Virus record (IMG/VR): IMGVR_UViG_3300013936_000025
Span: 4,048 to 68,047 of that record
Source: a virus
Taxonomy: Duplodnaviria > Caudoviricetes
Direction: 5' to 3' (one strand)
Length of the DNA stretch: 64,000 bases
The notes under the pieces are model-generated. The model had not been told where the DNA came from. It did not search any database and saw only the letters and a program-made list of their open reading frames with translations. Position numbers and translations under genes: made by a program. Shown piece after piece: positions 64 to 52,923 of this stretch (within the stretch, counting starts at the first letter, position 1; every line of letters begins with the position of its first letter).

Positions 64-138
64 GGTCCTGTAGTTTAACTGCATAAAACATCCCTCTCCT
101 AAAGGGAAGATGTAGGGGTTGGAGTCCCCTCTGGACCA
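64..138 (+). tRNA. Degenerate tRNA-Arg(CCT)-like cloverleaf
   Basis: Acceptor stem GGTCCTG/CTGGACC (one mismatch), D-stem GTTT/AAAC, anticodon stem TCCCT/AGGGA with loop CTCCTAA, T-stem AGGGG/CCCCT. Atypical T-loop (TTGGAGT), GC instead of GG in the D-loop, followed by CTA not CCA. Confidence 0.65.
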
Positions 139-1876: not shown

Positions 1877-3106
1877 ATGTATATAGATATGACAAGAGAA
1901 GAAGCTAAGAAGGCTTGTTTTGCAAGCTTGAAGAAGTCCAATTTCACTTTATTGGAACTACCTACTGGATTTGGAAAAACCTTCACTGCAATCCAGATGG
2001 TAAATCACTTGGTAGAGACAAAATATAAGGGAAAGCAGACCTCCATGCTTCTCCTTGTTGCTAAGATAGTACATAAGCAGACTTGGCAGGATGAGTTTGA
2101 TAAATGGGGAGGCATCAAAGTGGATAATCTTACCATAGAGTGCTATGAGTCATTGAAGAAGCACCAGTATGAGTCTTATGACATCATTGTTGCTGATGAG
2201 GGGCATCATTTAAACAGCGATAAAAGGCTAGATTTACTCAGTACCCTTACTTATGGTAATTTCATTGGTCTTAGTGCTACCTTTCCAAAGAAACTCAAGC
2301 AATATTTTCAGTATGCATATCATGCTGACATAGTATCATGTGACCTTGGTGATGCCATTGAGGATGATGTTCTTCCTGACCCTCAGATAGTATTGTTACC
2401 TCTTGAACTGGACAATACCAATTCTACAGAGGAAATAGAACTTAACCCTAAAACTAAGGGCAAGATATACTATGGTAATTATGCTGAGTTATGGAAGTAT
2501 AAGAAGATGAAGGTTCATGCTTTTATTTCCTGTACAGAGAAGCAAAGGTTGCTGGAATATAATTCTCAAATTTTATGGGAGAAGAATCTATATTCAAGGA
2601 ATAGGCAGGACTTCTTCAAGAACAGATGGCTGCATGATTGTGGTGAGAGAATCAAGTACCTAGCTAATCTAAAGAATGATGTGGTAAAGGATATTCTCAA
2701 GAAATTATCCAAGGAAAGAACCATTACCTTCTGTAAGACTATTGAACAAGCAGATTATCTTGGTAAGCATAGCATCCATTCAAAGAACAAAGAGTCCGAA
2801 GAGACATACAATGCCTTCAATGCAAGGAAGATAAATCATATTACGTCTGTTAATGTCCTTAATGAGGGAGCAAACCTAGTAGATTGTAAGTTTGCTATTT
2901 TTGCCAACTATTCCTCATCAGAGATATGTAGTGTTCAGAGATGTGGAAGGGCATTGAGACACAAGTCTCCTGTCATTATTCTACCTTTTTACAAGGGTAC
3001 TAGAGAAGAAGAGATTCTTACTAGTATGATTGAAGGATTCAACAGAGATAATATCATTGTTATTCATAATGTTGATGCCTTGGGACAATTTACAAAAAAT
3101 AAATGA
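1877..3106 (+). CDS. SF2 (DEAD/DEAH-like) helicase
   Basis: Walker A PTGFGKT, motif II DEGH, motif III SAT, motif V LNEGAN, motif VI QRCGRALR. Confidence 0.9.
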   Translation: MYIDMTREEAKKACFASLKKSNFTLLELPTGFGKTFTAIQMVNHLVETKYKGKQTSMLLLVAKIVHKQTWQDEFDKWGGIKVDNLTIECYESLKKHQYESYDIIVADEGHHLNSDKRLDLLSTLTYGNFIGLSATFPKKLKQYFQYAYHADIVSCDLGDAIEDDVLPDPQIVLLPLELDNTNSTEEIELNPKTKGKIYYGNYAELWKYKKMKVHAFISCTEKQRLLEYNSQILWEKNLYSRNRQDFFKNRWLHDCGERIKYLANLKNDVVKDILKKLSKERTITFCKTIEQADYLGKHSIHSKNKESEETYNAFNARKINHITSVNVLNEGANLVDCKFAIFANYSSSEICSVQRCGRALRHKSPVIILPFYKGTREEEILTSMIEGFNRDNIIVIHNVDALGQFTKNK

Positions 3107-3203
3107 TTTCATAGACAATAAATAGTAATATAATACGTTTATGGAAATAGAAACATAATCTAAGTAATTTGCTTTGAGCATATTGAGTTATCACAGAATC
3201 AGT

Positions 3204-3211
3204 TATCTTTG
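3204..3211 (+). promoter_or_regulatory. Bacteroidota-type -7 promoter box (TATCTTTG)
   Basis: Exact TAnnTTTG, ending 18 nt upstream of ATG3230. Confidence 0.65.
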
Positions 3212-3229
3212 CATAAAAATAAAAGCATT

Positions 3230-4636
3230 ATGGCAAATAAGAATAAAAGATATACAAGAGAGTTTAGTTATACTAGACCTATTATGTATCAGGGGGAAGC
3301 ATATCCCTCTGCTGATTCTGTGATAACTGATGAGCTTGGCAACAAGACCAATGGAACTATCTTTACAGATGCCTATGGTCAGTACTATACAAAGGATAAA
3401 GAAAACAATATCTTTCCAGTGATGCCTGTGGAGAACCTTGACGAAGTTACTATAACTGCCAAGAATAAGAGAGAACCTTTGTTGTTTAATCATTACTTGA
3501 CAGTGAATGATAACACAAGAGTGAACAACCTACCTCATAGAGAATATAATACACATCTCAAGGCTAATACTGAGAGAGGTGCTAGAGAACATGCTTTATG
3601 GGATAAAGAGCATCCTAACCTATCAGCATGGAGGGATGCAGCTACAGCAGTACCACTTGCAGTTGCTGCTACCCCTATAGTGTTAGGTACTGGGCAAGGA
3701 CTCCTTGGCACTACAGCAGGTCAAGCAGTTAAACATGGACTGACAGCTCTTATGGAGAATCCTTATGTAGTAGGTGCTAATGATGTACTTGGATTGGGGT
3801 TTGCAGGAAAGGGTGCTTATGATGTGACACAAGGTAAGTTTACTCCTGAGACTGCTATGGAATTAACAGGCTTCTATCCTTTTGGTAAGTCTCTTACAGG
3901 ATTGACTAAATCTAGGAAGATAAATAAAGGAATGGAAAATATTCTTGCAAACAGCAATAACTCTAACCCTTTTATCAATGAAGATATAGTATTCAACTAT
4001 AAACAAGACCCTTTAGAGATGCATTATGCAAGAGCTAAGGTTAAAGGTTATAGTCCTAATAGAATAGAATATTATAACTTAACAGAGGATTCTAATAAGA
4101 ATATGCAACTTATGCAAGAGTTAGCACCAATGTATGATGCTACTCCAGAAGAACTATTATCAGCATATAGAAATCATTTAGCTACAAGAAGTGGTCATGC
4201 AGCAACTTTAATGGATAAAAGAAATACTATAATTCATGATGGAATGCTTCCTAAGTCTCATGCTAGTGCTATTCTCTCACATGAAGTAGATCATGCTTTA
4301 CACATACCAGATGAACCTGTACCTGATGGAACATTTTTCCCCAGGATTAAGCTAGGTGGAGATTATTTTACAAGAAATAATAATACAGAGGTAGCAGCAA
4401 GAGGAAGTCAATTACATGATTACTTTGGACATACAGGGTCAGAACCTATTACAGCGGAAGAATTGAAATATGCCAAAGAACATTATGTCAAAGACACAGG
4501 TATTAATAACAATATGAGTAATATGTTGTGGAGTATTAATGATTATGATGCTTTAGCTAAGTGGATGACAAAGTATTCTACTGGCATTGTACCATTAGGA
4601 ATTATAGGTAATAATCAATTAAGCAATAATGAATAG
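3230..4636 (+). CDS. Modular protein with C-terminal HExxH zincin metallopeptidase (polymorphic-toxin-like); likely start ATG3230
   Basis: LDEVTITA linker, Ala/Gly-rich hydrophobic middle, C-terminal SHEVDHALH with downstream TEVAAR. Confidence 0.7.
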   Translation: MANKNKRYTREFSYTRPIMYQGEAYPSADSVITDELGNKTNGTIFTDAYGQYYTKDKENNIFPVMPVENLDEVTITAKNKREPLLFNHYLTVNDNTRVNNLPHREYNTHLKANTERGAREHALWDKEHPNLSAWRDAATAVPLAVAATPIVLGTGQGLLGTTAGQAVKHGLTALMENPYVVGANDVLGLGFAGKGAYDVTQGKFTPETAMELTGFYPFGKSLTGLTKSRKINKGMENILANSNNSNPFINEDIVFNYKQDPLEMHYARAKVKGYSPNRIEYYNLTEDSNKNMQLMQELAPMYDATPEELLSAYRNHLATRSGHAATLMDKRNTIIHDGMLPKSHASAILSHEVDHALHIPDEPVPDGTFFPRIKLGGDYFTRNNNTEVAARGSQLHDYFGHTGSEPITAEELKYAKEHYVKDTGINNNMSNMLWSINDYDALAKWMTKYSTGIVPLGIIGNNQLSNNE

Positions 4637-9980: not shown

Positions 9981-10805
9981 ATGAAATTAAATGAGACAAA
10001 ATCTTTTTTAAGAATTCCTGTAATTTATGGTATTCAAAATACAAAGAGCTGTAAATGGTATATTGGAAGTTGTATTGACATGAAAGACAGATTTCAACGC
10101 CATAGATACTATCTAAGACATAATAGTCATCACTCTCCAAAATTACAAAGAGCTTATAATTTATATGGAGAAGATTCTTTTGAAGTTCATATTTTGCATT
10201 TCTTACAAGAAAATGAGGATAGATTTATTTTAGAAGAACAATATATTAAAGATTATGATAGTGTAGCAAATGGCTACAATATACTAGATAAATGCAAACA
10301 TGTGGATGGTTTTACTTTTTCTATGAAGGCAAAAGAGCATTTCCTAGAATATATTAAAACATTAGAAAAATCTGTTATTGCAATAGATAGATTCTCTGGA
10401 AATATAGATAAAACATTTGAATCCATAACACAAGCTGCAAAATACTTCAATACTAGTACTTCTAATATTAGTAGGGTTTGTAAAGGTAATCTTAATTATA
10501 TCAAGGATCATGTGTTTGTTTATACCAAAGACTTTGAAGAAACAAAAGATTATAGAGTACAAAATCATTGGAAAGGAAAACCTAAAAGTGAAGCTCAAAA
10601 AGAGAAAATGCGAAGAAATAGCAAATTAAATTGTCCTATTTATAAGTATGATTTAGAGAATAATCTCATTAGCGAATATTATTCAATCTCTGATGCAGCT
10701 AGACAACATAATATGAGTGCTGATTCTTTAAGGTATCAAATAAATAAGCATCAAATAGTTAATGGTTTCCTATTTTCACGAGTAAAAGTAAACAAAACAT
10801 TATAA
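9981..10805 (+). CDS. Free-standing GIY-YIG homing endonuclease with NUMOD1-like C-terminal DNA-binding repeats
   Basis: VIYGIQN...WYIGS...RFQRH; repeats FESITQAAKYF...ISRVC and YYSISDAARQ; AT-rich. Confidence 0.9.
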   Translation: MKLNETKSFLRIPVIYGIQNTKSCKWYIGSCIDMKDRFQRHRYYLRHNSHHSPKLQRAYNLYGEDSFEVHILHFLQENEDRFILEEQYIKDYDSVANGYNILDKCKHVDGFTFSMKAKEHFLEYIKTLEKSVIAIDRFSGNIDKTFESITQAAKYFNTSTSNISRVCKGNLNYIKDHVFVYTKDFEETKDYRVQNHWKGKPKSEAQKEKMRRNSKLNCPIYKYDLENNLISEYYSISDAARQHNMSADSLRYQINKHQIVNGFLFSRVKVNKTL

Positions 10806-10829
10806 ACAACAATTTAAAATATCAAGATT

Positions 10830-11282
10830 ATGGAAAAAAGAATTTCATTTGATCAGTTTCAGTCAGTAAAGCGTGTAGCACAGGCATGTAATCCTCTTAT
10901 TGTAAAGAGAAATAAGATTAAAGAGAAGATTGAGAAACTTGCTAAGGAATACAAGGACTATGATACACAAGTTGCTTCCTTGGAGGCAGGTATTAAGCAG
11001 GTAATTGGTTTCCGTGTAGAGGAGCTTGTAAAGAAAGTAATTGAGCCTGGTGTAGATGCTAATGGTCAGCCTAAGAAGACCACCAAGTATCTTCCTACAG
11101 ACATTGTATCTTATGATGAGCAGCACAAGCAGTTTGTCATTTCCCTTCCTAACCCAGAAAATACTGCAAATCCCTCAGTTGAGAGTGAAAGTACAGAAAC
11201 CTCAAATGAGGAAAATAAAATGGAAGCCCCAACTGATGTTGCAGAGGAGGAACCTACTACAGATGCACCAATCTTTGAGTAA
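10830..11282 (+). CDS. Hypothetical protein with coiled coil and acidic tail, 150 aa
   Basis: ORF track; phage-typical codon usage. Confidence 0.8.
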   Translation: MEKRISFDQFQSVKRVAQACNPLIVKRNKIKEKIEKLAKEYKDYDTQVASLEAGIKQVIGFRVEELVKKVIEPGVDANGQPKKTTKYLPTDIVSYDEQHKQFVISLPNPENTANPSVESESTETSNEENKMEAPTDVAEEEPTTDAPIFE

Positions 11283-11337
11283 CAAACAATAAATATATTA
11301 ACAAATATTCACAATTTAAATTTTAAATCAAACAGTT

Positions 11338-12252
11338 ATGATTAACAAAGTAAATTATTGCCTTCTTGCCATTGGCAAGACACAGGAATCAACAGAGACA
11401 GCAGAGTTCAAGAAGTATATTGGAGTAGGTTCTTCATTTGTAGTGGCAGTAAACCCTACAAAGAAAGAACTTGAGACAATTTATGGTAGAGAAATGACTA
11501 ATGACCCTGAATATGTAGTTGACACTGATAATGGCAAGGAAGCACGTATTACATTTGTGGTAAAGACAGACCCTAATACCTGCAATGGTGTTGAATTACT
11601 CAACAGAGTAATGTTCACCTTACGTAATACCCCTGCTTATAACAGAGACCAAACTAAAGTACAGGTTATTGATAAGTATGGCAATGTTACATGGACAGAT
11701 GTTGAGACTGCCAAGGCAGGTAATAAAATCGTTACACCTAATGGTCATGATGCTAAGATTGCCACAGGCTATCGCATGGCATGTGTAGGTGAGGCAGACC
11801 TTGTAGGATTTTTGAAGTCTTATCTCTGTGTAGGGGATGTCTTTAACTATGTGAATGGAGCTTGGGTACTGAAAGATGATGCTGAGAATTATGTTTTTGG
11901 TCTTGAGCACATCAAGGACTATTTCACAGGTGATTTCTCAGAGATTAAGGAAGCCATCAAGCTTCAACCAAACAATAAGGTAAAGCTTCTCTATGGTGTA
12001 CGTACAACTGATGAGGGTAAACAATATCAAGCTGTAGCTACTCGCAATGGTATGGTTCTTCGCAATAGCGCAGGTTCCAATGCTCTCGCTAGATTGGAGA
12101 AAGAGCTTGCTAGTGCAAAGGAAGCTGGTAGCTATTCCAATGTAGAATATAAGGTTCAGGAACTTACAGAGTTTGATGTAAAGGCTACAGACCTTTCTTC
12201 TGCCCCATCTGAGGATTCTACATCTACAGATGATGACCTTCCTTGGAATTAA
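11338..12252 (+). CDS. ssb: Probable single-stranded DNA-binding protein
   Basis: Acidic C-terminal tail EDSTSTDDDLPWN; position between the AAA ATPase and primase. Confidence 0.65.
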   Translation: MINKVNYCLLAIGKTQESTETAEFKKYIGVGSSFVVAVNPTKKELETIYGREMTNDPEYVVDTDNGKEARITFVVKTDPNTCNGVELLNRVMFTLRNTPAYNRDQTKVQVIDKYGNVTWTDVETAKAGNKIVTPNGHDAKIATGYRMACVGEADLVGFLKSYLCVGDVFNYVNGAWVLKDDAENYVFGLEHIKDYFTGDFSEIKEAIKLQPNNKVKLLYGVRTTDEGKQYQAVATRNGMVLRNSAGSNALARLEKELASAKEAGSYSNVEYKVQELTEFDVKATDLSSAPSEDSTSTDDDLPWN

Positions 12253-12285
12253 TTGTAAATAAATAACTTTCAAAGTAATAATCTT

Positions 12286-13290
12286 ATGGTAATAGGTAAA
12301 ACCTCTCCTAGTACTATTTCAAAGACAGAGATATTCAGTAAGTTCAGTGAGGCGCAGGTATTAAATACTGTGCTTCCTGAAGTTACAGAGATTCCATGTC
12401 TCATTAACTCCCCATTAAGAGTTGACAAGCATCCTTCCTTTAGAATATATATGAGTGAGCATAATCACATCAGATATATAGACTATGCAACAAATGACAA
12501 GGGAACATTGCTTGAACTATTGTGTAAGTATTGGAATTGCACATTCAATCAAGCATTAGATAAAATCTGCAAACTAATGATAAAGGATGACAATGTGGTC
12601 ATTAAGCCAAAGCAGATAAAGACCTTCACCAGAAAGGAGACTAATCAGATGTCTAAGATTGAGGTGAAGGTTAGACCTTGGAGAGACTATGACTATGAGT
12701 ATTGGGAATCCTATGGCATCACTAAGCCATGGTTGAAATATGCAGAGGTTTATCCTATCTCCTATAAGATTATTACCAAGAAAGATCCTACCACAGGTAA
12801 GAGTAGCAGATATATCTTCCCAGCAGACAAATATGCTTATGTCTACATAAATAGAAAGGAAGGTAAGTTACAAATGAAAATCTATATGCCATTTAATACG
12901 AGAGGTTTTAAATGGTGTTCCAAGGCTGACAAAAGTGTCATAGACTTATGGACTAAAATCCCTGAATATGGGGATAAAGTTATAATATGTAGTTCCATGA
13001 AAGATGCATTATGCATTAGTTGCAATCTTCATATACCTACCCTATCCTTACAAGGAGAAGGTTACAGCATGTCTCAGACAGCCATCAATGAGTTAAAGAG
13101 AAGGTATAAGAAGATATTCATATCATTTGATACAGACATTCCTGGTAGGCAAGACTCTGCTAAGTTGGCAGAGGAAACAGGTTTCATTAATATAGTTCCT
13201 GACCTAAGGGAATGCAAGGACTATAGTGATGCTTTCAAAGCTTATGGAAAAGAATGGTTTGTAAAAACCTTAAAAGACCTATTCAACTAA
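12286..13290 (+). CDS. dnaG: DNA primase (DnaG/TOPRIM-type)
   Basis: SPLRVDKHPSF N-terminal domain, SSMKDALC, ISFDTDIPG, KDYSD. Confidence 0.85.
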   Translation: MVIGKTSPSTISKTEIFSKFSEAQVLNTVLPEVTEIPCLINSPLRVDKHPSFRIYMSEHNHIRYIDYATNDKGTLLELLCKYWNCTFNQALDKICKLMIKDDNVVIKPKQIKTFTRKETNQMSKIEVKVRPWRDYDYEYWESYGITKPWLKYAEVYPISYKIITKKDPTTGKSSRYIFPADKYAYVYINRKEGKLQMKIYMPFNTRGFKWCSKADKSVIDLWTKIPEYGDKVIICSSMKDALCISCNLHIPTLSLQGEGYSMSQTAINELKRRYKKIFISFDTDIPGRQDSAKLAEETGFINIVPDLRECKDYSDAFKAYGKEWFVKTLKDLFN

Positions 13291-13343
13291 ACTACAGAAA
13301 CACACTAATCATTAATTTAAAAATATTTTAAAAAGAAATTATT

Positions 13344-14108
13344 ATGGAAAGAGAAATTCTTATTGCAAATACAAAGACACAGAAAAGAAGTAAGATTACT
13401 AGTAGTGCAATGACACTTGGTGAGTTGAAAGCAGACTTGCGTGCAAAGGGCATTGATTATACTGATATGACCTTCACTGAGGGAATCTCAAAAACTCAGT
13501 TGCTTGATGATGCTACACAGCTTCCTCAGAATGTAATGTATAAGGGACAGCCTACCAACAATTTGGTTATTCTTCTTACCAATACAAAGAAGAAGATTGC
13601 CTCTGGTGCAATCAATAGAAAGGAAGCTTATACACTCATCAAGGAGGCTGGATTACAAGAAGCAGTAAAAACTAAGTTTGGCAAGAACTTTACACAGGTA
13701 TCTACAGAAGATTTGATTCATACATTAATGGAAAATGGTGTAAAGATATATGATACTACACCAAAAGAGGTTTCTAAAGAAGAGCCTAAGGAGGAAGCTT
13801 CTACTGAGGAAGAATCAAAGGATATAGAAGAGGAGGAATACTATGAGGACGAGGATAATTATACCCTAAAGGATTTCATTACTCAAGTATGCCCAGATAC
13901 TATCGAGGATACACTTGTCATACATATTGCATCTCTTGCAAAAAACAATGCCATTAGTGTAGATAAACTTCAAGAGTTGAAGAATGACATTGACAATATC
14001 ATTAATCTTCTCAATAAGAAGGAAAAGCAGGTTTCAAATCCTATAAGTACATCTGATGGTAGCATCAATGATGATGATATTGATGACATGATTAATGACA
14101 TCATGTAA
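13344..14108 (+). CDS. Putative ubiquitin-like (beta-grasp) protein with C-terminal extension
   Basis: First ~88 aa show a beta-beta-alpha(TLGELKADL)-beta-beta pattern ending NLVILLTNTKKKIASG; lies immediately upstream of E2-, JAB- and E1-like genes. Fold is inferred. Confidence 0.6.
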   Translation: MEREILIANTKTQKRSKITSSAMTLGELKADLRAKGIDYTDMTFTEGISKTQLLDDATQLPQNVMYKGQPTNNLVILLTNTKKKIASGAINRKEAYTLIKEAGLQEAVKTKFGKNFTQVSTEDLIHTLMENGVKIYDTTPKEVSKEEPKEEASTEEESKDIEEEEYYEDEDNYTLKDFITQVCPDTIEDTLVIHIASLAKNNAISVDKLQELKNDIDNIINLLNKKEKQVSNPISTSDGSINDDDIDDMINDIM

Positions 14109-14136
14109 TCTGACTGTTTGGTATTTTGATTGTATA

Positions 14137-14168
14137 GGGAGTAGGGATTAAGTTCTTTACTCCCTTTT
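14137..14168 (+). terminator. Terminator/attenuator between the Ubl-like and E2-like genes
   Basis: GGGAGTAGGGA/TTCTTTACTCCC stem followed by TTTT. Confidence 0.65.
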
Positions 14169-14192
14169 ATTTTAACTTAAAACAATATCATT

Positions 14193-15428
14193 ATGCAATA
14201 CACAATCAATCAACTATACCAGCATATTTACGAAAAGGTAGATAACATCTATGATATATTCAAGGGATTCTTTGGCGAAAATAATGTAGATTTACAGTAC
14301 ACAATTGCTAGAAATACAGTAATATCATACATTATAGCTGAACTACAGCGTAAGAATGTAGACCTAGACCTTAAAGACCAGGAATATAATACAAGCTATG
14401 ATGTTCCTGATAGTGCCCTAGAGTCTCTGGAAGCCTTCTTTGCTCTGAATAAATCAATTATCTATGTATGGTGGAACAGGGTTAAAATTACCAATGAGAA
14501 CAATAAGTCTGTCACTATCCAAGACCTTTATGCAAAGATTGAGGTGCAAATGAATGGCAGAATTCCTTATGAGAATCATGGATTTCTTCTTAATAGAGCT
14601 ACTTATAGCAAAGAACAGTTCCTAAGTGACTATATGCATAGTCATATCTGTGAAATACCTAAAGACGATTTTACTAAATTTGAGAAGCCATGTCTAGGTA
14701 CTGGACCTATCAATGGTACCATTATGACATTAAAGAATGATTATGATGAGGTTACTTGGATGCTATTCTGTGATGAGTTATCCTTGTATGTTACAGTAGA
14801 ATCTTTAACAGGAAGACCTTATAAATATCTAGAACATATAGGATACAGAGAAAGGCTTTATAGATACAATGGCTTTGATTTTACCAATAATGCGTATGCT
14901 AAAAAATTCTATATATGTTTCTCTAAGGAGGACTTTATAAAATTTATCAAGTATTATCTACAGAAAGGGCATTTATCTATTACCTATAAGAATGGCAAGT
15001 ACTCATGTGGTATGCCATATTATGAATATATCATAGATATTAGTAATGCATTCATTGATTATTACAATGCTTATCTTATAGGTAAAGAAAATTCAGATAG
15101 ACTGTTTAACTGTGGTATACTTAACTATGTATTATTTGTCAATGGTAAATTCTATAGGAATGAAAATACTACTTGTAGAAATCTAGATAGATATAGGAAT
15201 AACTTCGTTCTTAACTTTAAAGGCAAGGATATATACACAACCATTACAGAGGATGCAGAAAGCGAGAGTACTTTAACTACTGTCATAGATAATGATATAG
15301 CTATGTATATCCTGAAATCAATTCTTAGAATAATTAATTTTAGATACAATAAAAATGAACATAAATTCACAACAGCAGGAATCAATCAAGGAACTTCCAC
15401 AGTTAAAGAAAGGATCAGCTACCTATAA
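14193..15428 (+). CDS. Putative prokaryotic E2 (UBC-like) conjugating enzyme, 411 aa
   Basis: YMHSHI...KPCLGTGPI (His149/His151, Cys167) resembles the E2 HPN/HxH...CL signature; operon context supports it. Confidence 0.62.
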   Translation: MQYTINQLYQHIYEKVDNIYDIFKGFFGENNVDLQYTIARNTVISYIIAELQRKNVDLDLKDQEYNTSYDVPDSALESLEAFFALNKSIIYVWWNRVKITNENNKSVTIQDLYAKIEVQMNGRIPYENHGFLLNRATYSKEQFLSDYMHSHICEIPKDDFTKFEKPCLGTGPINGTIMTLKNDYDEVTWMLFCDELSLYVTVESLTGRPYKYLEHIGYRERLYRYNGFDFTNNAYAKKFYICFSKEDFIKFIKYYLQKGHLSITYKNGKYSCGMPYYEYIIDISNAFIDYYNAYLIGKENSDRLFNCGILNYVLFVNGKFYRNENTTCRNLDRYRNNFVLNFKGKDIYTTITEDAESESTLTTVIDNDIAMYILKSILRIINFRYNKNEHKFTTAGINQGTSTVKERISYL

Positions 15429-15684
15429 GCTTATTGTTCCTGAGAAGGTAGAAGAGAAGATTAGGTATCTACTTAGGAAGTTCCCATCTACAGAATGGTC
15501 TGGAGTATTATTCACCAAGCATACAGGTACTTTTGAGAACAATGACTTGGTTATTACTTGTGAAGACCTATATCCTATGGACTTAGGTACATCAGGTTGG
15601 ACAGAGTTCAAGATGAATGAGGATGTATCAGCTTATATGGCTGAAAACATAGAGCTGTTTGATTGTGATGTAGCATTAGTGCAT
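15355..15684 (+). CDS. JAB/MPN+ (JAMM) metalloprotease, exon 1 (spliced product 427 aa)
   Basis: STEWSGVLF (Glu47). Splicing gives VH|SHHNLGAFLSSQD, an exact HxH-x7-S-x2-D JAMM motif. Confidence 0.88.
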
Positions 15685-15831
15685 TAACTTGTGAGTGCAC
15701 ATTAAATTGGGTGAATTGCTGGAAACTGGTTGACAAACCACAATCAGCAGCCAAGCTTAGTGGATTAAAATCCCTTTGAAGGTTCAACGACTAACAAATA
15801 TTTATTGTAATTAACAAGCCTAGAGTTTGAT

Positions 15832-16443
15832 ATGAATAAAGTAGAAAAAGCAACATTAATTGGTTTAGTACTAGGAGATGGTCATATAGACTGTTCTAAG
15901 AATAAAGGTATATATACAAATTCTGCAATAACATTTATTCATTGTAAAAAACAAAAAGAATATTTAGAATGGAAAGCAGATTTGTTATATAAAATATTTG
16001 GAGGTAATAAACCAAAAGTTATTGAGTTTACTAATAATGGGTATAATGGAGTAAAAATGATGAAATCTAATAAATATTTTAGAATACTCCATAAATATCT
16101 ATATAAAAATGGCAGAAAAACCATACCATTAAAAGCATTAAATCGTTTAACACCATTAGCATTAGCAATATGGTGGATGGATGATGGGTGTTTGTTTGCT
16201 AAAAAAAGAAATAATAAAATACATGCTTGGGAACTTTATCTTAATACTTATTTATCAGATGAAGAAAATCAAATAATTATTAATTATTTTCAGCAAAGAT
16301 GGAATATATTATGGAAGATAAACCATGATAAAGGACGTAGTAGATTAAGATGTTCTACTAAAGAAGGTAGAAAATTTCTTAATATAATACGTCCTATAGT
16401 AAACAAAATACAATGTATGCAATATAAAGTTATAAATATTTGA
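15832..16443 (+). CDS. Intron-encoded LAGLIDADG endonuclease (sense, P8 region)
   Basis: LIGLVLGDG and LAIWWMDDG motifs. Confidence 0.9.
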   Translation: MNKVEKATLIGLVLGDGHIDCSKNKGIYTNSAITFIHCKKQKEYLEWKADLLYKIFGGNKPKVIEFTNNGYNGVKMMKSNKYFRILHKYLYKNGRKTIPLKALNRLTPLALAIWWMDDGCLFAKKRNNKIHAWELYLNTYLSDEENQIIINYFQQRWNILWKINHDKGRSRLRCSTKEGRKFLNIIRPIVNKIQCMQYKVINI

Positions 16444-16465
16444 CACGAGTGCCCAACCCTACAGA

Positions 16466-17530
16466 TTATTTCGTAGGTGATGATATAGTCTGAACTTGTT
16501 TATATTTGTCATAGGAAGGATGATTTACTCTTTGTAAAAATCTATCATGCTTCCTTTTATAATAAAATGGAAGATGCTCATAGCATTGAAATAATCTATA
16601 AGTATCTTTTTTACGTGCAAAAGATAAAGAAGGTATGGAATCATATTGATGTATATGCTTCTTATCTATCTTTAGATGTTCACATATCCCTTCAAGAATA
16701 GCATGGGTACCTCTAATATTAATATACATTGTATTATCTTGACATAAGACTCCTGAGGATTTTCGTACAGAATCTTGTATATGAATAGAACCGTCTGCAT
16801 CAAATAAGCCCATGATGAAAGCATCTCTAAATTGCTTTGGAATATTTGGGATAATGTTAGGTAGTGTAAAACTCTTTCTAGGAGTAATACCATACTTCAT
16901 AATATCATGTACAATCTGAGGGGTACTAAAAGCTAATCTAGCATGATGAATTATCTTAGATTTATCAAAACCTGATGGTCTTCTTATTTCTAATATTTTA
17001 TGTGTGTTACCAATTTCTGATTTTATGAACTCCAATATAGCCTTATCTTCCCACTTAACAGTGATAGTTAAGGTTATTGTTGGTCCATACTTTGCAGGAA
17101 CTAGAGCACCATCAGCAGCAATGAAACCTAAGATATAGGCTTTAGCATAGGTATCTATAGTTTCAAAGTAATGAATATTCCCAGGATCAGGTCTAAACTT
17201 TAATCCTAGACTACGGATATAGCTAGATACTGTGACAGCATTTAAATTCAGAATCTTAGAGATTTGGGTAGGAGTATTCCCTTCATGTAATAATATACCA
17301 ATTTGTTGCTTTACTTCATCTGTAATAACACAATTTGGATGAGCATTTATAAATACTCCTTCTCGTCTTAATAGCTTCCTAATACACTGAGCATCATTAT
17401 CAATATTAGAAGAATTAAGGAGTCTAGCTATATTAGCACAAGTATTACCTTGTTTATAGCTTTCAAGAATAAAATCCTTTTGGTTTTCAAATTTAAATCT
17501 ACTCATAATTTTATTATTTATTATGAACAA
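16466..17530 (-). CDS. Second intron-encoded LAGLIDADG endonuclease (antisense, P9 region; start probably ATG at 17506)
   Basis: AYILGFIAADG and FIMGLFDADG motifs with N-terminal HTH-like repeats; the 3' end runs antisense through the intron S element. Confidence 0.9.
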   Translation of the reverse strand: MFIINNKIMSRFKFENQKDFILESYKQGNTCANIARLLNSSNIDNDAQCIRKLLRREGVFINAHPNCVITDEVKQQIGILLHEGNTPTQISKILNLNAVTVSSYIRSLGLKFRPDPGNIHYFETIDTYAKAYILGFIAADGALVPAKYGPTITLTITVKWEDKAILEFIKSEIGNTHKILEIRRPSGFDKSKIIHHARLAFSTPQIVHDIMKYGITPRKSFTLPNIIPNIPKQFRDAFIMGLFDADGSIHIQDSVRKSSGVLCQDNTMYINIRGTHAILEGICEHLKIDKKHIHQYDSIPSLSFARKKDTYRLFQCYEHLPFYYKRKHDRFLQRVNHPSYDKYKQVQTISSPTK

Positions 17531-17643
17531 AAATACAGAAAAATCATGAATAAGTGAACATTCTAAAATATACGCTAATGCAAACTAATTTTATTATTAA
17601 GAACAAGATTCCTAGGATAAAGAGCCTAGGAGATAACATAACG

Positions 17644-18597
17644 TCACATCACAATCTCGGAGCCTTTCTGAGCAGTCAAGACATTAAGATGGTACAGCAA
17701 GAAGGCAATGATACCAACTGCTTTGTATCTCTTGTTGTTGATACTCCAGGAAACTATGTAGCTATTGTAACTAGAAAAGTACAAACCAAGTCTGAGGTTA
17801 CAATCAAGAACTTGGGAACATCTTATGAGTTCTTTGGAGAAGGAAGCAAGACTATTACCAAAGAGAATTCTGAGATTACAAAGGTAATTGATAAGGAATT
17901 TATTGAATACTTTGACCTTGAGGTAGAAAGGCATGAGGTTATTAACAATCTTGCTTATCTTGATGACAGATTTGATGAAATAGAGAAGAAGAAAGCTTCA
18001 ATAAAGAACAATAATCTTGGACTACCTTCTTATAGTAGCAAAGAAAATAATCAACCTAAGTTCCAATTGGGTGATGGAAACTATGATGATTTCAGAAGCT
18101 ATCTACATAGAGATAACAATAAGGAAACCACAGGTAAGGAATTAGATTTATTTAATCAAGAACAGGATGAGTTATCTAAAGAAGACTATGATAAGTTAAA
18201 TGAGGTTGCTAGCTCCAACTGGAAGCCAGACCCTAAGAAAGTTCATAGAGCTGTATGCAATATGGTCACATGCAACCTCATCATTAATCCTGATAAGCTC
18301 GACTTGAAGCAATGGATTCATAAGCACATGGTGAATGTATATGAGAGAATTTTCAATGATACACAATCCAATACTTATGAGAATGTGAATGCCTTTGCAG
18401 AATGGAGAGATTTCATCACTCAATTCACAATGGATTACTTTGATGTATCTGATGCTCCAGATGAACTGCTAGATAATTGGGATGTCCTCATGAGCACAAT
18501 AGCCATAGCCATCTATGATGAGCTTAGTAAATATGCTAATGAGAATATATACATTCAATCTTATCAAGATGCTATTGAACAATATATAGTACAATAA
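17644..18597 (+). CDS. JAB/JAMM protease, exon 2 with long C-terminal extension
   Basis: Begins SHHNLGAFLSSQD...FVSLVVD; in frame with exon 1 after splicing. Confidence 0.88.
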   Translation, partial: SHHNLGAFLSSQDIKMVQQEGNDTNCFVSLVVDTPGNYVAIVTRKVQTKSEVTIKNLGTSYEFFGEGSKTITKENSEITKVIDKEFIEYFDLEVERHEVINNLAYLDDRFDEIEKKKASIKNNNLGLPSYSSKENNQPKFQLGDGNYDDFRSYLHRDNNKETTGKELDLFNQEQDELSKEDYDKLNEVASSNWKPDPKKVHRAVCNMVTCNLIINPDKLDLKQWIHKHMVNVYERIFNDTQSNTYENVNAFAEWRDFITQFTMDYFDVSDAPDELLDNWDVLMSTIAIAIYDELSKYANENIYIQSYQDAIEQYIVQ

Positions 18598-18599
18598 TT

Positions 18600-19697
18600 A
18601 TGGAAACAAATACAATAGATAATATTCTTAATGACTTGGGAATGAGTACTACTCCTACTACACCTCCTACAGAAGCTATTTCTACAGAGAATGTTTCCAG
18701 TACTTTCTCTAATGAAGACATTAATGATATTCTAGAAGATAATGGCTTTTCAGAAGAAGGAATACAAGATGCTGTATTTGAAGAAGAAGATTCTGAGGAA
18801 GAAAGGGAGAATACCCAAGATTTAAGTAATACTGCCCAAGATGATGAAATGGAACATCAGCTTTATCAACAAGCTTTGGAAGAAGTAGACTCTGAAGTAA
18901 ATGGTGATTCTGAGGATGCTACTCCTACAGAGGGACATGAAATCTCTAAGAATGATAAGATTCCACTGAATTCTCCTACCCTACTTATAGATGAATCTAC
19001 ATCTAGGTTCTCAGGTGCTGAATGGTTCAATGAGATACAGAAAGCTAGAATCATAGTAGCTGGATGTGGAGGTATCGGCAGCAACTTAATATTCCAACTA
19101 GCAAGAATGGTACCAGCTAATATTACCATCTATGATGATGATGCGGTAGAGATGGTTAATATGGCAGGGCAGTTATATAGCTATAGTGATATGGGAAAAG
19201 CAAAGGTTGATGCCATAGCTGATATGATAACTTCTTATTCCTCAATGCGACAAGTTAATGCTATTAAGGAAAAGTTTACCAGTCTTACTGAGGCAGGAGA
19301 TATTATGATGTGTGGCTTTGATAATATGTCTGCAAGAAAGACGTTCTTTAACTCTTGGTATGAGCATATTAAGAATAAAAGTAAGGAAGAAAGGACTAGG
19401 TGCTTACTGCTTGATGGTCGTCTTAGCATGGATACCTTACAGATATTCTGTATAAGAGGTGATGATACTTATAACATTAATAGGTATCAGAGTGATTTTC
19501 TTTTCTCAGACTATCTAGCGGATGCTACAGTATGTTCCATGAAACAGACTACTTATCTAGCCTGTATGATTGGCTCATTGATGGTAAATCTCTTTACTAA
19601 TTTTGTAGCTAATTCCTTAAATCCAGTCATTCCTTATGACTTACCTTTCTTTACAGAGTATGATGCACAGAATATGATATTTAAGACAGAAAGCTAA
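18600..19697 (+). CDS. E1-like (ThiF/MoeB/HesA) adenylating enzyme with acidic N-terminal extension
   Basis: IIVAGCGGIGS, YDDDAVEMVNMAGQ, KAKV, CGFDNMSAR, LDGR; candidate catalytic Cys312 (TVCSMKQ). Confidence 0.9.
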   Translation: METNTIDNILNDLGMSTTPTTPPTEAISTENVSSTFSNEDINDILEDNGFSEEGIQDAVFEEEDSEEERENTQDLSNTAQDDEMEHQLYQQALEEVDSEVNGDSEDATPTEGHEISKNDKIPLNSPTLLIDESTSRFSGAEWFNEIQKARIIVAGCGGIGSNLIFQLARMVPANITIYDDDAVEMVNMAGQLYSYSDMGKAKVDAIADMITSYSSMRQVNAIKEKFTSLTEAGDIMMCGFDNMSARKTFFNSWYEHIKNKSKEERTRCLLLDGRLSMDTLQIFCIRGDDTYNINRYQSDFLFSDYLADATVCSMKQTTYLACMIGSLMVNLFTNFVANSLNPVIPYDLPFFTEYDAQNMIFKTES

Positions 19698-20434
19698 TGA
19701 GAGATTTACAATTTATTATACATAATTGCTTTGAGGATACTTATCATACTAGATGCTATGCTCCCCCATATCCAGACTGTCCTAATGGGAAATTGGCAAA
19801 CTTAATTGTTCCTATAGAGGATTCCTTTGAGATGCCTGTATTTGCCCTCAGGGCTTTAAAGCCAGATGTCAACTATATAGTAGCAGATTTACAGGATATT
19901 GGTAATCGTACGGAATATAAATCCTTAGATACTGGAGTTAGGGATATTCTAACAACTGACTTTGTAAATAATAGGTTAGTAGAGCTTAACACTAAGGTAG
20001 GAGAGCCTAAATACTATGGTACTTATGGGGCTATATTTGACAAAGACTTCAATCTAACAATGGCTATCTTATGGAAAATGCAAAGGTATATTGTTGAAGA
20101 TAATGAGAAATATCCTTATAAATTCAGATATAAGTTTGTTGAACCAATCCTAAGGGTCAATCCCCAGGTATTTATCAATAGAAGTAATTCTGTTGAGAGG
20201 TATATCATCAACAAAATCTTGTCATCTGCTGTCCTGAACTATAGTATTGACAGACCTAGACTATCAAAAATCTATGTTGATGATAGTAATCCTTATTCTA
20301 TATTTAGGTTAAAGGTAGAGATTGGTACATTTCCTTCCTTTTATATAAAGAAACCTGATGTTCCATCAATTTCCACCACCAATGAAGAGTTACTAAAGGC
20401 AGCGTTTGATAATATAGAGGACATAATAGAATGA
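19697..20434 (+). CDS. Hypothetical protein, 245 aa, translationally coupled to E1
   Basis: TAATG overlap with the E1 stop; no recognised motif. Confidence 0.8.
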   Translation: MRDLQFIIHNCFEDTYHTRCYAPPYPDCPNGKLANLIVPIEDSFEMPVFALRALKPDVNYIVADLQDIGNRTEYKSLDTGVRDILTTDFVNNRLVELNTKVGEPKYYGTYGAIFDKDFNLTMAILWKMQRYIVEDNEKYPYKFRYKFVEPILRVNPQVFINRSNSVERYIINKILSSAVLNYSIDRPRLSKIYVDDSNPYSIFRLKVEIGTFPSFYIKKPDVPSISTTNEELLKAAFDNIEDIIE

Positions 20435-21168
20435 CAATACAGGAATACTTTGGAGATTGGTGTAAGGTCATAAACTTAACAGAAGCAGAGAGAATAATCA
20501 AGAGATTAGCTAGCTCAAAACAAGTTGTTTGCCCTCAGATAAAAGACATTTTTAGAGCTTTTACTCTTTGTTCATTGCATGATTTGAAGGCTGTTATAGT
20601 TGGAATGGATCCATATCCAGACCTAATAAAAGGCAAGCCTAGGGCTACAGGAATAGCTTTTGGAAATTCATGGGATACCTTAGAAGAAAACTATTCCCCA
20701 TCCTTAGATGTGCTAAAAGAGTCAGTAATAGACTACTCTATGCCACATGAAAGAATTACCTTTGACCCAAGTTTGGAGAAGTGGGAAGAACAGGGAGTGT
20801 TGATGCTAAACTCGGCACTCTCTTGCTTTGCGGGCAAAATAGGCTCACATGCACTCATGTGGAGACCTTTCATAAAATTCTTTCTCACTAAACTTTCCAA
20901 CTATGACAGTGGCATTGTCTATGTATTAATGGGTACTGAGGCACAAAGCTTTGAGTCTTGCATCAATGCCAAGTATAATCATATAATAAAGACAAAGCAT
21001 CCATCATGGTATGCAAGAAATCACATCAAAATGCCTTCTGACTTATGGAATCAAATAAACAAGATACTTATAGGTCATTATGGCTATGGTGTTGAATGGT
21101 ATAAAGAGTATAAATTTAAAAATGAACAAGAAGAAAATGAAAAAGTATTTTATGCAGGGAACTGCTGA
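20431..21168 (+). CDS. ung: Uracil-DNA glycosylase (family 1)
   Basis: VIVGMDPYP, WEEQGVLMLN, KHPS. Confidence 0.92.
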   Translation: MTIQEYFGDWCKVINLTEAERIIKRLASSKQVVCPQIKDIFRAFTLCSLHDLKAVIVGMDPYPDLIKGKPRATGIAFGNSWDTLEENYSPSLDVLKESVIDYSMPHERITFDPSLEKWEEQGVLMLNSALSCFAGKIGSHALMWRPFIKFFLTKLSNYDSGIVYVLMGTEAQSFESCINAKYNHIIKTKHPSWYARNHIKMPSDLWNQINKILIGHYGYGVEWYKEYKFKNEQEENEKVFYAGNC

Positions 21169-51100: not shown

Positions 51101-52072
51101 ATACTGCCAATGTATGCCATCCTTCATAAGCAAAAGGTAAAGCTCAATGGAGAAAAAATTTCCTTATATGATGCCTTGGAAGTAACCAATAAACAGGATG
51201 GCAATGCTGAGTTGAAGATAAAGGATGGAGTTACAGACCTTGATGGAAATCCTATAACTGACACATATATTAATAAAGTAAGAGGAATAATCTCCTATGC
51301 CAACAAGACTATGCATGGTGCCATGAATGCTGAGGACAGGGGACTCATACATCAGTATGTGCTAGGTAGACTTGCCATGAACTTTAGGCAGTGGATGGTA
51401 GGATTCTACTCTAGAAGATTCAGTAGGAGACACTTTAACTTTGACCTCAAGGACTATAGGGAAGGATATTGGACTACACTCTACAAGGCACTTGTTACAG
51501 ATGATGTAAAGGATGAATGGAAAGCAAGTACTTGGAAGAATGGTAGATTGAATGTCATGGGACAATTCCTAAAGGATTTCACTACTTTTATGTGTAGGTC
51601 TTCTACTCAATGGAGCAACCTTAATGATATGCAGAAAGCCAACATAAAGAGAGTTAGGTCAGAGATGCTTACTTATATAGCCCTAATAGGTCTTAGCTTT
51701 GCACTTGGGGAACCTGATGACCATAAGAAAGAGTTCTGGAGAAGGTGGTGGATATACCAAACAAAGAGAATGATAACAGATACTGAGGCTGGATTACCTA
51801 TGCCACAATTATTTAATAGTGGAATGACTATATTAAACTCTCCTATGGCAGGAATACCTACTATTACAGCTCTTATGTATACTGTAGCAGGACTTTATAA
51901 TGGTGATGTTTTTACAGAAATACAATCAGGTAAGCATAAAGGAGAAAATAGGTATATAAGAAATATGATTAAATACAATTTGCCTTTGTTTAAAGATATT
52001 GAGAAAATGGAAAACTTTGATTCTGATGATTCATTATTCAAAGTATTTGACTATAACTTAGGCAATCATTAA
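48128..52072 (+). CDS. Large helical virion cargo-type protein, about 1314 aa (start probably ATG48128)
   Basis: Size and position directly after the RNAP, as for crAss-like ejected proteins; no catalytic motif seen. Confidence 0.7.
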   Translation: MSKDTCKLYPEVTTPKGGVEASRLYKDLLNKDKFDYPRPFVNMVYANYIVSNIEAKMEAEKNADGTPKYQRNRQGQFSAKDVVEYLDLNKVFGEINTMSDEERRIGSVDSNGNKVDYTNAEEALKKIVDFNNTHKGLVAYLIPHGEVYNINVYTKDSRTITMSTTMQNMLDTWNRRKQVFEEAGVDITKMPEELNSIFNASNTFLDQYLKNLTSQKNGDFYKKDAMALLYIDKDSDEVQRLVKKFGSIEEAALALDDFNHGNITLPSNEQHLLQMALNHAKKLHGIDIDALVDEMNKMTKSSLKSPEWKIKHEIIRENKKWGIDKLEINRINNEIKFLSQANAEAAVQIDRRIKELYKEKGTNEEGRQLESVLNKLMNELNTNHYYTGIIDFLNIAGEDASKLDKLLESVPQDGDERTRIFNTIKTLQDAKKVINQYKYIVKALASDGITVDEAVTMENIKNIKDKAEKLSKFFAKKEGVIKDQTKTILHDFFVMATDGKMSEGEIHSILEKEVMEAGWTDRWLNSVGTAKNTFIAAAGTIMRNQEIQRDQANTAIKHQINRANYKLTKAGYNTRFMYEDEQHIVSNINWKAYDAAKEKQQKKLTRQGYRGFDFKQQMEDWEAANTEERLVDKKNGRKERVPNKNYRKIEDFQKGWSKEQKEYYDTMMELKGELETLYPEKGRNYYLPPQVRRNMVDAITDSTKEGNVKGIGKALKDKLKNFYTIREDDTDYAENGMVNGEEVTFGDGNYDNTEKKEIPIFFQKPVEKGELLLDFSSGMSRLAGSAINYDAMNSIRDVMEFMRDYADEKKAPANKTQVVDNGMIRVTKDLYKIAKKNGVAEILNGFIDSHIYGIKQFDEKMPKGLVKALDSIRNYTSLKGLMFNAPGAMANALTGVQQIFIDAGSGEFFGGKDLIWATGKLFGDAGLKGEAMEILSNNASHKAKLLRDLFDPMQENFENDKNKRYHSSMFRQLISKDCSFIGYGAGEWAIHILPMYAILHKQKVKLNGEKISLYDALEVTNKQDGNAELKIKDGVTDLDGNPITDTYINKVRGIISYANKTMHGAMNAEDRGLIHQYVLGRLAMNFRQWMVGFYSRRFSRRHFNFDLKDYREGYWTTLYKALVTDDVKDEWKASTWKNGRLNVMGQFLKDFTTFMCRSSTQWSNLNDMQKANIKRVRSEMLTYIALIGLSFALGEPDDHKKEFWRRWWIYQTKRMITDTEAGLPMPQLFNSGMTILNSPMAGIPTITALMYTVAGLYNGDVFTEIQSGKHKGENRYIRNMIKYNLPLFKDIEKMENFDSDDSLFKVFDYNLGNH

Positions 52073-52077
52073 TATAT

Positions 52078-52102
52078 AAGGGAGGTTAATAACCTCCCTT
52101 TA
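52078..52102. terminator. Bidirectional terminator between convergent genes
   Basis: AAGGGAGGTTA-A-TAACCTCCCTT perfect inverted repeat. Confidence 0.75.
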
Positions 52103-52798: not shown

Positions 52799-52915
52799 AA
52801 GCTTTCATTTTTAATCATAACGAGGGTTTTTATACAATATTGCATATACCATAAGAAAATTGCAAGTATCTCTTAGTACTTTTCTTAATATCTAGTTATT
52901 TTATCATAATACATC

Positions 52916-52923
52916 TACCTTTG
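52916..52923 (+). promoter_or_regulatory. TAnnTTTG promoter box (TACCTTTG)
   Basis: Exact motif upstream of ATG52947. Confidence 0.6.

Follow-up and report, generated by a model that had tools for sequence, protein, structure and literature searches.

What are four adjacent genes of the kind otherwise associated with ubiquitin-like conjugation doing after the primase gene of a crAss001-like phage? This question is raised by the 64,000-nucleotide stretch of DNA analysed here (the window), which corresponds to positions 4,048 to 68,047 of the IMG/VR virus record IMGVR_UViG_3300013936_000025 and is a fragment of that 68-kb record, itself estimated to be 59% complete. An initial annotation of the window had proposed that the four genes encode a ubiquitin-like protein (Ubl), an E2-type enzyme, a JAB peptidase and an E1-type enzyme and that they form an operon for Ubl conjugation. 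Our analysis makes it moderately likely that the cassette is indeed a phage-encoded Ubl conjugation pathway, which would be expressed together with the replication genes.

All four genes are found on the plus strand between 13344 and 19697 (Table 1) and, as confirmed by the positions of the open reading frames (ORFs) and by the primase upstream, they lie where they had been placed before, co-oriented and tightly packed or overlapping. The genes are coupled: those for E2 and JAB overlap by 74 nucleotides, the gap between JAB and E1 is 2 nucleotides, and the stop codon of the E1 gene overlaps the start of a fifth conserved gene. In the phage collection, megablast found no DNA-level match to the region, and relatives were reached by protein searches. 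The nearest named ones by protein, bajarodcaudo virus 1, cr85_1, cr112_1, crAss001, DAC15/17 and Kolpuevirus, show 30–59% amino acid identity, and judged by its proteins the window phage is crAss001-like (Steigviridae-type).

All 24 related crAss001-like loci that were mapped show one and the same order, namely pre-primase gene, primase, Ubl, E2, JAB, E1, fifth gene and uracil-DNA glycosylase (UDG), together with the same coupling; 18 of these loci had been retrieved through the E1 and 4 through the E2 of crAss001, and 2 were annotated records. In crAss001 the orthologues are gp79–gp76, with the same order and the same coupling. In addition, the Flavobacterium phage FpV4 (Fipvunavirus) carries a toprim gene and a UDG gene followed by the four cassette genes; profile comparison identified its homologues of Ubl, E2 and JAB with probabilities of 97.8%, 97.5% and 99.7%, respectively, and its ThiF gene was already annotated. 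The four genes are thus co-conserved, as had been expected for them, in 24 of 24 loci and in FpV4. Since the order is the same in all of these 24 loci, and since all of the motif residues named in the initial annotation proved to be invariant in our alignments, the cassette represents more than a chance arrangement.

The first gene product has 254 amino acids, and its N-terminus had been described as a β-grasp domain. This was borne out by the AlphaFold model obtained from an alignment of 16 sequences, in which residues 3–80 are arranged as strand-strand-helix-strand(s) with a predicted local distance difference test (pLDDT) value of ~90. A Foldseek search of the PDB with this model returned ubiquitin, UBX, ISG15 and TINCR, at a probability of 1.0 and with target template modelling (TM) scores of 0.6–0.7; the identity to ubiquitin in the fold match is ~20%, and according to the Foldseek list the domain is structurally nearer to ubiquitin/ISG15 than to ThiS/MoaD. 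Relatives were obtained by the fold search alone, as the sequence profile of the Ubl found no match among the PDB sequences. The Ubl domain (residues 1–88) ends in K-K-K-I-A-S-G. Its tail, K83-x-I85-x-S87-G88, is floppy in the model (residues 83–88, pLDDT <50), and K83, I85, S87 and G88 are invariant in the 16 aligned sequences; the tail of the FpV4 homologue reads KQVKSGG and ends in Gly-Gly. Gly88 is followed by 166 more residues, which comprise a helical region, an acidic disordered linker (137–172) and a helical C-terminal domain. Taken together, the β-grasp matches, the invariant Gly tail and the further C-terminal residues indicate that the protein is a ubiquitin-type domain made as a precursor. 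In a crAss001-like relative (locus L063, 2976–3500), the Ubl gene is broken by ~0.5 kb directly after the codons for K-K-I-K-S-G, and the break coincides with the predicted processing site; the insertion carries an ORF for an HNH-type endonuclease (3022–3495).

The third gene product is a JAB/JAMM peptidase which is encoded by two exons. Exon 1 contains a catalytic-type glutamate, E47, within S-T-E-W-S-G and ends with A-L-V-H, the last residue being the first His of H-x-H. Exon 2 opens at 17644 with SHHNLGAFLSSQD, and the joined exons read H-S-H-x7-S-x2-D; the JAMM motif, consisting of E47 and this sequence across the junction, is therefore whole only after removal of the intron, exactly as had been claimed. 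The E...H-x-H-x7-S-x2-D motif is nearly invariant across the alignment of the JAB family. The exon junction could be fixed because uninterrupted homologues exist whose two parts abut to the base, which is the case in the 21 other loci in which both halves were mapped; the crAss001 orthologue gp77 is a single protein of 414 amino acids, and the insertion is shared by locus L003 only, which is 99% identical to the window. In the part that holds the motif, the profile of the JAB family matches the archaeal JAMM1 (5lda, E 0.012), CSN5 and Rpn11-like proteins. The Pfam model Prok-JAB reaches 20.4 and 21.6 bits on full-length homologues, under its cut-off of 25, and a Pfam search with the JAB exons of the window alone gave no match. 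An ORF of 347 amino acids with a GTG start (17554–18597) was rejected as an artefact, as its first 90 nucleotides are intronic.

The insertion of 1959 nucleotides splits the JAB gene exactly inside the H/SH zinc motif, and several features identify it as a group I intron. The 5' exon ends in U, and its last bases, UGCAU (15680–15684), pair with GUGCA (15695–15699) to form P1, in which a U·G pair marks the splice site. The 3' exon begins with UCACA (17644–17648), which pairs perfectly with UGUGA (15690–15694), directly upstream of the P1 strand, to form P10, and the last intron base is a G at 17643. In addition, the Rfam model Intron_gpI matches the first 190 nucleotides when these are searched alone (15662–15850, model positions 1–193) with 45.2 bits and an E of 8.6e-11, at a gathering score of 50. 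For the 3' half of the intron core the match is weak (12.8 bits at 16400–16514); an Rfam search over 7 kb at once missed the intron, and one with the 3' 180 nucleotides alone returned no match. The reading of the interruption as an intron is thus upheld by P1 and P10, by the junction, by the Rfam match and by a homologous intron in a related locus (see below). An intein was also considered and rejected, as a stop codon stands straight after exon 1 and the endonucleases are encoded by free-standing genes, of which one runs on the opposite strand.

If this insertion were a mobile element that is not spliced, the JAB gene of the window phage would be dead and Ubl, E2 and E1 would have to work alone. 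The Rfam score just under the gathering score and the weak 3' half of the core are what this explanation can draw on. However, the pairings P1 and P10 fall exactly on the junction by which the reading frame is restored, the exon-final U and the intron-final G are in place, the related intron shows a compensatory change in P10, and two independent contigs carry both exons as intact open frames. We therefore regard a dead JAB gene as very improbable.

The fourth gene product is a protein of 365 amino acids that consists of an acidic, variable N-terminus of low complexity (residues 1–117) and a single adenylation domain (~118–365, ~245 amino acids). The annotation as E1/ThiF with GCGGIG, D-x-D-x-V-E-x2-N, KAK and Cys312 was confirmed, as the ThiF model matches above its cut-off and the residues are invariant. 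In detail, the invariant residues are R136, G155-x-G-G-x-G160 (GCGGIG), D179, D181, N187, K202, D241 and C312; the window sequence has D179-x-D181-x-V-E-x2-N187, and D241 is the Mg-binding Asp. The E1 family profile matches PaaA, MccB, UBA5, TcdA, ThiF, UBA7, BubCD and Cap2 in the PDB over the Rossmann core, and the Cap2 models of PADLOC match the window protein with their E1 part only. C312 lies in T-x-C-S-x-K-Q-T-T, 71 residues past D241, and the PDB alignments end before this region.

The second gene product, a protein of 411 amino acids, is a weak point of the conjugation reading; in the initial annotation an E2 had been taken to argue for protein conjugation rather than for a ThiS/ThiF sulfur relay. 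Here H149-S150-H151 and P166-C167-x-G-x-G-P (P-C-L-G in the window) are invariant in 26 sequences with identities down to 31%, which confirms the H-S-H and Cys167 motifs named in the initial annotation. The AlphaFold model of the whole protein, built from these 26 sequences, has a pLDDT of 86.5. It shows a helix (5–27), a strand (32–36), a helical insert, three further strands (87–100, 106–119 and 132–139), the loop with H-S-H and C167, and two helices (172–182 and 186–199). H149-S-H151 is located 10 residues past strand 4 and C167 a further 16 residues on, right before helix 172–182. This order of elements probably corresponds to the UBC fold, with the His motif and the Cys in the places that H-P-N and the catalytic Cys occupy in E2s, as far as the model can be trusted.

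Indeed, an exhaustive search of the PDB with VIA-align put E2, UEV or RWD domains in at least 30 of the 50 best rows, with Z scores of 4.0–6.1 over 100–135 residues of model positions 5–216. The rows of the UBC superfamily included 6h3c_C (a BRISC chain), Ubc9, a Leishmania E2, the RWD domain of RNF25, Ubc8, the UEV domain of Tsg101, Ubc13, the RWD domain of GCN2 and UbcH5; further rows were the E2 domain of Cap2 (Z 4.7), UBE2S/J2/E1/O, BubB, Atg3 and UBC12. The chain 6h3c_C we take to be BRCC45, a UEV-domain subunit. As the Z scores lie in the middling range of the tool, the UBC fold is held to be probable and not proven. The proposal that 14193..15428 encodes an E2 therefore stands in part: the topology is UBC-like and the matches are to E2, UEV and RWD domains, whereas the Z scores are middling and no sequence model recognises the protein. 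The computations returned neither a non-E2 fold for this protein nor a fold other than β-grasp for the Ubl nor a lack of co-conservation, the three computational outcomes that the initial annotation had named as speaking against it.

The family of the E2-like protein is large, with 2625 cluster representatives (50% identity) at E ≤ 1e-3. A scan of genome assemblies with the E2 profile yielded five contigs of metagenome-assembled genomes (MAGs) only, two of them at 88–111 kb; they include L067 and L068 (Bacilli MAG), L066 (Agathobacter) and L069 (Waltera). These contigs from Firmicutes MAGs are probably mis-binned contigs of crAss-like phages and not bacterial homologues.

Several points weigh against conjugation and have to be set beside this evidence. 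It is the predicted fold by which the E2 is identified, and VIA-align warns that Z scores of this size can mirror a common arrangement. A Foldseek search of the PDB with the E2 model gave nothing at E ≤ 1e-3; the best rows, at an E of 0.08, were chains of CENP-O/Mcm21 of the yeast inner kinetochore, presumably RWD proteins. No match to the protein was found in Pfam (single sequences and all 26 members of the alignment, E ≤ 10), in PHROG, in PADLOC or in a PDB profile search. In the E1, an invariant Gly190 in N-M-[AS]-G-Q (N-M-A-G-Q in the window, 19158–19172, residues 187–191) replaces the Arg of N-L-x-R-Q, which makes the ATP site atypical. C312 is placed in the crossover loop by its spacing rather than by an alignment or a model; for comparison, the catalytic Cys of UBA5 is situated towards the C-terminal end of that loop (PMC11601596). 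Finally, the Ubl could remain joined to its own C-terminal domain. Other searches were neutral: Foldseek against viral models found uncharacterised orthologues of the E2-like protein only, its leads in the ESM Atlas all scored <0.9 (one viral cluster, with Prok-E2_D on 11% of its members, scored 0.77), and a complex prediction with the E1 core, Ubl 1–88 and E2 1–232 gave a score of 0.00, which amounts to no verdict and was used neither way.

These points leave room for a pathway in which the Ubl is activated without E2-type conjugation, for example as a thiocarboxylate sulfur carrier or an acyl-adenylate for the modification of nucleic acids, nucleotides or small molecules, with the 411-amino-acid Cys/His protein as a downstream enzyme. 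Such a pathway would suit the location of the cassette among genes of DNA metabolism, from primase to UDG, as well as the sequence neighbours of the E1 (PaaA, MccB, TcdA, ThiF and UBA5 are non-conjugating or minimal E1-like proteins), its replaced ATP-site Arg and the lack of a significant Foldseek or sequence match that would prove the E2. It is nevertheless unlikely in our view. No sulfur-relay or cofactor gene (rhodanese, cysteine desulfurase, ThiG/ThiH, MoaE or thiouridine-synthetase-like) was found by Pfam and PHROG in the 10 flanking ORFs scanned (9981–21168), and to this extent the earlier statement that none are nearby holds. Furthermore, the fold matches of the 411-amino-acid protein are mostly E2, UEV and RWD domains, the structural proximity of the Ubl is to ubiquitin/ISG15, and a JAB that accompanies a Ubl made as a precursor is typical of conjugating systems (PMC11601596).

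For the conjugation pathway a possible order of steps is offered by the precedent of Type I Bub and by the Bil-like gene content. In Type I Bub, cleavage by the JAB domain right after a conserved Gly frees the Ubl from its fusion, and the Ubl is adenylated by a minimal homodimeric E1 before an E2 with a diverged UBC domain receives it (PMC11601596). Our analysis establishes to which fold or family each of the four phage proteins is assigned, which catalytic-type residues it carries, the intron and the conservation of the gene linkage; the route from cleavage to conjugation we infer. Splicing of the group I intron would make the JAB mRNA translatable, and the JAB metallopeptidase would, by analogy with BubAB, cut the 254-amino-acid precursor after Gly88. 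The minimal, probably homodimeric E1 would then adenylate Gly88 with ATP and may form a thioester on Cys312. From there the Ubl would move to the E2-like protein, where Cys167, close to His149 and His151, would take it over. The E2-like protein, by means of its C-terminal half or of the product of the fifth gene, would transfer the Ubl to a lysine of a putative phage or host target, and the JAB may also reverse the mark. In the initial annotation, host defence or replisome proteins had been suggested as possible targets. That all of this adds up to a complete viral tagging cascade, in which a precursor Ubl, a JAB maturase, a minimal E1 of the Cys type and a divergent E2 that brings its own substrate-binding half mark a host or phage protein during genome replication, is a proposal to which we give an even chance.

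The cassette might also serve counter-defence, an explanation that is about biological purpose more than about chemistry. Its main task would then be to undo or block Ubl-based immune pathways of the host, of the type of Bil, Bub or CBASS Cap2/Cap3: the JAB would strip host-made Ubl or cGAS conjugates from phage or host proteins, with the other three phage proteins, Ubl, E1 and E2, serving as decoys or competitors. Bacterial Ubl systems tag structural proteins of phages or prime CBASS (PMC11601596), which gives the phage a motive, and the cassette is early or replication-linked and very widespread in phages of Bacteroidota. On the other hand, a deconjugase alone would do for stripping, yet four genes with intact catalytic-type residues are kept together, and no similarity of the phage Ubl and E2 to a host system was found (in PADLOC, the E1 is the only match). 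We consider this explanation improbable, more so than activation without conjugation.

The comparison with known systems returns to the conjugation pathway and shows what kind of cassette this would be. As in Bil, Ubl (BilA), E2 (BilB), JAB (BilC) and E1 (BilD) are encoded by separate genes of one operon without a recognisable E3 (for the phage E2 this is a call at the level of the fold), and a cysteine-type E2 is presumed to choose the target itself. Bil is, however, found in bacterial defence islands and the phage cassette in the replication module of a lytic-type phage. The phage Ubl carries a C-terminal domain of ~165 amino acids, the phage E2 and JAB have large extra C-terminal regions, and beyond the Rossmann core of the E1 there is no detectable sequence similarity. 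The E1 of Bil, BilD, is built from tandem inactive and active domains and a mobile Cys domain (PMC11601596); its phage counterpart consists of one minimal adenylation domain of ~245 amino acids and an acidic N-terminus, without tandem domains.

The cassette resembles Type I Bub (BubAB, BubCD, BubE; formerly 6E.1) in its Ubl precursor, in a JAB that is expected to cut after a conserved Gly, in a minimal E1 of the homodimeric type, in the adjacency of JAB and E1 and in an extra fifth gene, and BubB and BubCD are among the fold and sequence matches. In contrast to the Ubl-E2 and JAB-E1 fusions of Bub, the phage Ubl is fused to a non-E2 domain, the E2 is separate, and JAB and E1 are separate as well. 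Bub uses Ser/Tyr oxyesters, with a Ser in the E2 and no crossover-loop Cys in the E1, whereas C167 and C312 of the phage enzymes are invariant. The fifth gene of Bub encodes a DUF6527 protease, and that of the phage has no DUF6527 match in Pfam. Because of the invariant Cys in both enzymes (as opposed to Bub) and an E1 without tandem or mobile Cys domains (as opposed to Bil), the cassette is a member of neither family; going by our analysis, it probably works like them nonetheless.

The cyclic-oligonucleotide-based defence system CBASS, with Cap2 (an E2-E1 fusion) and Cap3 (JAB), shares the E1, E2 and JAB chemistry; the Cap2 models match the phage E1, and the E2 domain of Cap2 is the match with Z 4.7 mentioned above. 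The phage cassette differs in that it has no CD-NTase and no effector, its genes are unfused and it contains a dedicated β-grasp Ubl instead of the C-terminus of a cGAS-like protein as substrate. The likeness to Bil and to CBASS Cap2/Cap3 suggested by the initial annotation thus applies to the kinds of genes, and does not extend to the single minimal domain of the phage E1 or to a Ubl that is made as a precursor with a tail of ~165 amino acids. Among the tail assembly proteins of lambda and T1 (Iyer et al. 2006, PMC1779556), TAPI is a Ubl whose conserved C-terminal Gly precedes a linker and a second domain, and TAPK combines JAB and NlpC domains, the JAB being predicted to release the Ubl. This phage-borne pair of Ubl and JAB, with a conserved Gly before a linker and a second domain, is similar to that of the window, but it lacks E1 and E2 and belongs to a tail-assembly module, whereas the cassette has both enzymes and belongs to a replication module. 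ThiS-ThiF and MoaD-MoeB share with the cassette an E1-like adenylation domain (Pfam ThiF); they differ from it in that the cassette has no sulfur or cofactor partners near it, contains an E2-like protein and a JAB, and has a Ubl that, in the fold search, resembles ubiquitin more than it does ThiS.

The intron of the JAB gene has a counterpart in the same operon of a relative. In locus L014 it is the E2 gene that is interrupted, by a homologous intron (L014 4267–5398), with an identity to the window intron of 81% in the 5' core, 81% in the segment after endonuclease gene 1, 66–68% in the antisense gene and 82% at the 3' end. The insertion sites (marked by a slash) are A-T-G-C-A-T/T-C-T-C-A-T in L014 (M-H/S-H, within Y-M-H-S-H of the E2) and G-T-G-C-A-T/T-C-A-C-A-T in the window (V-H/S-H of the JAB). 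Both introns are thus located between the His and Ser codons of H-S-H, and the shared site is xTGCAT/TCxCAT. P1 is the same in both introns and P10 shows a compensatory change (UCA/UGA in the window, UCU/AGA in L014), the guide having changed with the exon. As the introns at the JAB site of the window and at the E2 site of L014 are homologous, one intron family has colonised two H-S-H-coding sites of one operon, and the presence of two look-alike sites suggests ectopic homing.

In L014 the segment that follows gene 1 in the window sits within ~35 nucleotides of the 5' core, showing that this intron has no sense endonuclease gene. Since it carries the antisense gene only, the sense gene of the window (15832–16443) looks like a later addition; the antisense gene (16466–17530), because of its orientation, must be transcribed from a separate promoter on the other strand. 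Matching sequence was found in four sequencing runs, all of one study, as contigs. In the contig of run X1, the 5' core of the intron (15689–15796) is joined to 16441, with 29 other letters replacing 644 nucleotides that include the sense endonuclease gene. Its JAB exon is different and ends in L-D-C-Q-M-G-L-I-H, which makes it another phage of the same sample or study; going by its sequence, the contig is a form of the intron without the sense endonuclease gene, at the same JAB site in another phage. Other introns populate the same replication module: besides the HNH-bearing insertion in the Ubl gene of L063, an insertion that carries a LAGLIDADG ORF interrupts the UDG gene of L006 (9949–11015).

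Table 1. Coordinates of the cassette, its intron and the adjacent genes in the 64,000-nucleotide window
Feature	Position	Strand	Basis and remarks
Ubl precursor, 254 amino acids	13344..14108 (Ubl residues 1–88 = 13344–13607)	+	AlphaFold model, Foldseek, alignment
E2-like protein, 411 amino acids (probable UBC fold)	14193..15428	+	Predicted fold of N-terminal domain, ~1–216; C-terminal half, ~235–390, without family
JAB exon 1, 110 codons	15355..15684	+	tblastn with crAss001 gp77 and bajarodcaudo virus homologue; alignment; PHROG phrog_21448, E 1.2e-10
Group I intron, 1959 nucleotides	15685..17643	+	Rfam Intron_gpI; P1/P10 pairing; homologous intron in L014
LAGLIDADG homing endonuclease gene 1, 203 amino acids, sense, intron-borne	15832..16443	+	Pfam LAGLIDADG_2, E 7.4e-34; PHROG homing endonuclease
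LAGLIDADG homing endonuclease gene 2, 354 amino acids, antisense, N-terminal helix-turn-helix	16466..17530	-	Pfam LAGLIDADG_1, LAGLIDADG_3; PHROG phrog_4645 endonuclease, E 1.1e-36
JAB exon 2	17644..18597	+	S-H-x7-S-x2-D, rest of MPN core, ~250-amino-acid C-terminal extension without assigned fold
E1-like adenylating enzyme, 365 amino acids	18600..19697	+	Pfam ThiF (PF00899), 73.7 bits, cut-off 28.1
Fifth conserved gene, 245 amino acids, crAss001 gp75-like	19697..20434	+	tblastn at this position in 20 of 24 mapped loci; crAss001 gp75
DNA primase	12286..13290	+	PHROG phrog_12622 DNA primase, E 1.1e-43; weak Toprim match in Pfam; synteny (upstream neighbour in every related locus)
Uracil-DNA glycosylase	20431..21168	+	Pfam UDG, E 1.6e-10; downstream boundary of cassette

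The product of the fifth gene has few invariant residues (P47, Y106, Y107, G111, P223 and S226). It gave no family match in Pfam (E ≤ 0.01), PHROG or PADLOC and no fold match, its Atlas model being too poor for this with a pLDDT of 0.29. Acidic amphipathic helices end both the Ubl precursor (14040–14105, D-D-D-I-D-D-M-I-N-D-I-M) and the fifth protein (20365–20431, L-L-K-A-A-F-D-N-I-E-D-I-I-E); together with the acidic N-terminus of the E1 (18600–18950) they might, to go by their composition, represent a shared docking motif. Outside of the cassette, two tRNA genes are found at the left end of the window (64–138 and 344–417; Rfam tRNA, 54 and 66 bits). The guanine-cytosine skew and the adenine-thymine skew flip their sign near 53 kb (~52000–54000), which probably marks a switch of the coding strand between genome modules.

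In public records the JAB is labelled 'metalloprotease domain containing protein', and Ubl and E2 are 'hypothetical'; the E1 goes by 'thiamine biosynthesis protein' or, in one case, by 'E1 enzyme family protein'. The thiamine label traces to the Pfam ThiF adenylation domain and is almost certainly a misnomer. Our search of the literature on crAss-like phages and phage Ubl systems, in which not every journal was covered, found no paper that describes the cassette; among the papers searched, TAPI/TAPK of lambda and T1 is the only phage-borne pairing of Ubl and JAB (PMC1779556), and phage-encoded versions are unmentioned in the Bil and Bub papers that were checked.

So far, prokaryotic Ubl conjugation has been characterised as an anti-phage immunity of the host, in the form of Bil, Bub and CBASS Cap2/Cap3. 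If our reading is correct, the same chemistry would be used by a virus, and this in a phage group that ranks among the most abundant in the human gut. Its architecture would be a distinct one, with a minimal E1 that has an altered ATP motif and an E2 that is unrecognisable by sequence, and its operon has been entered at two similar sites by one mobile intron family that splits the JAMM motif in the window and the H-S-H of the E2 in L014. The cassette is carried by cultured phages, namely crAss001 (gp79–gp76), DAC15/DAC17 and FpV4. A correction of the labels 'thiamine biosynthesis protein' and 'metalloprotease' would touch the annotation of thousands of gut-virome contigs, and the cassette itself would constitute a viral counterpart of the Bil and Bub defences, present in thousands of crAss-like and Flavobacterium phages.

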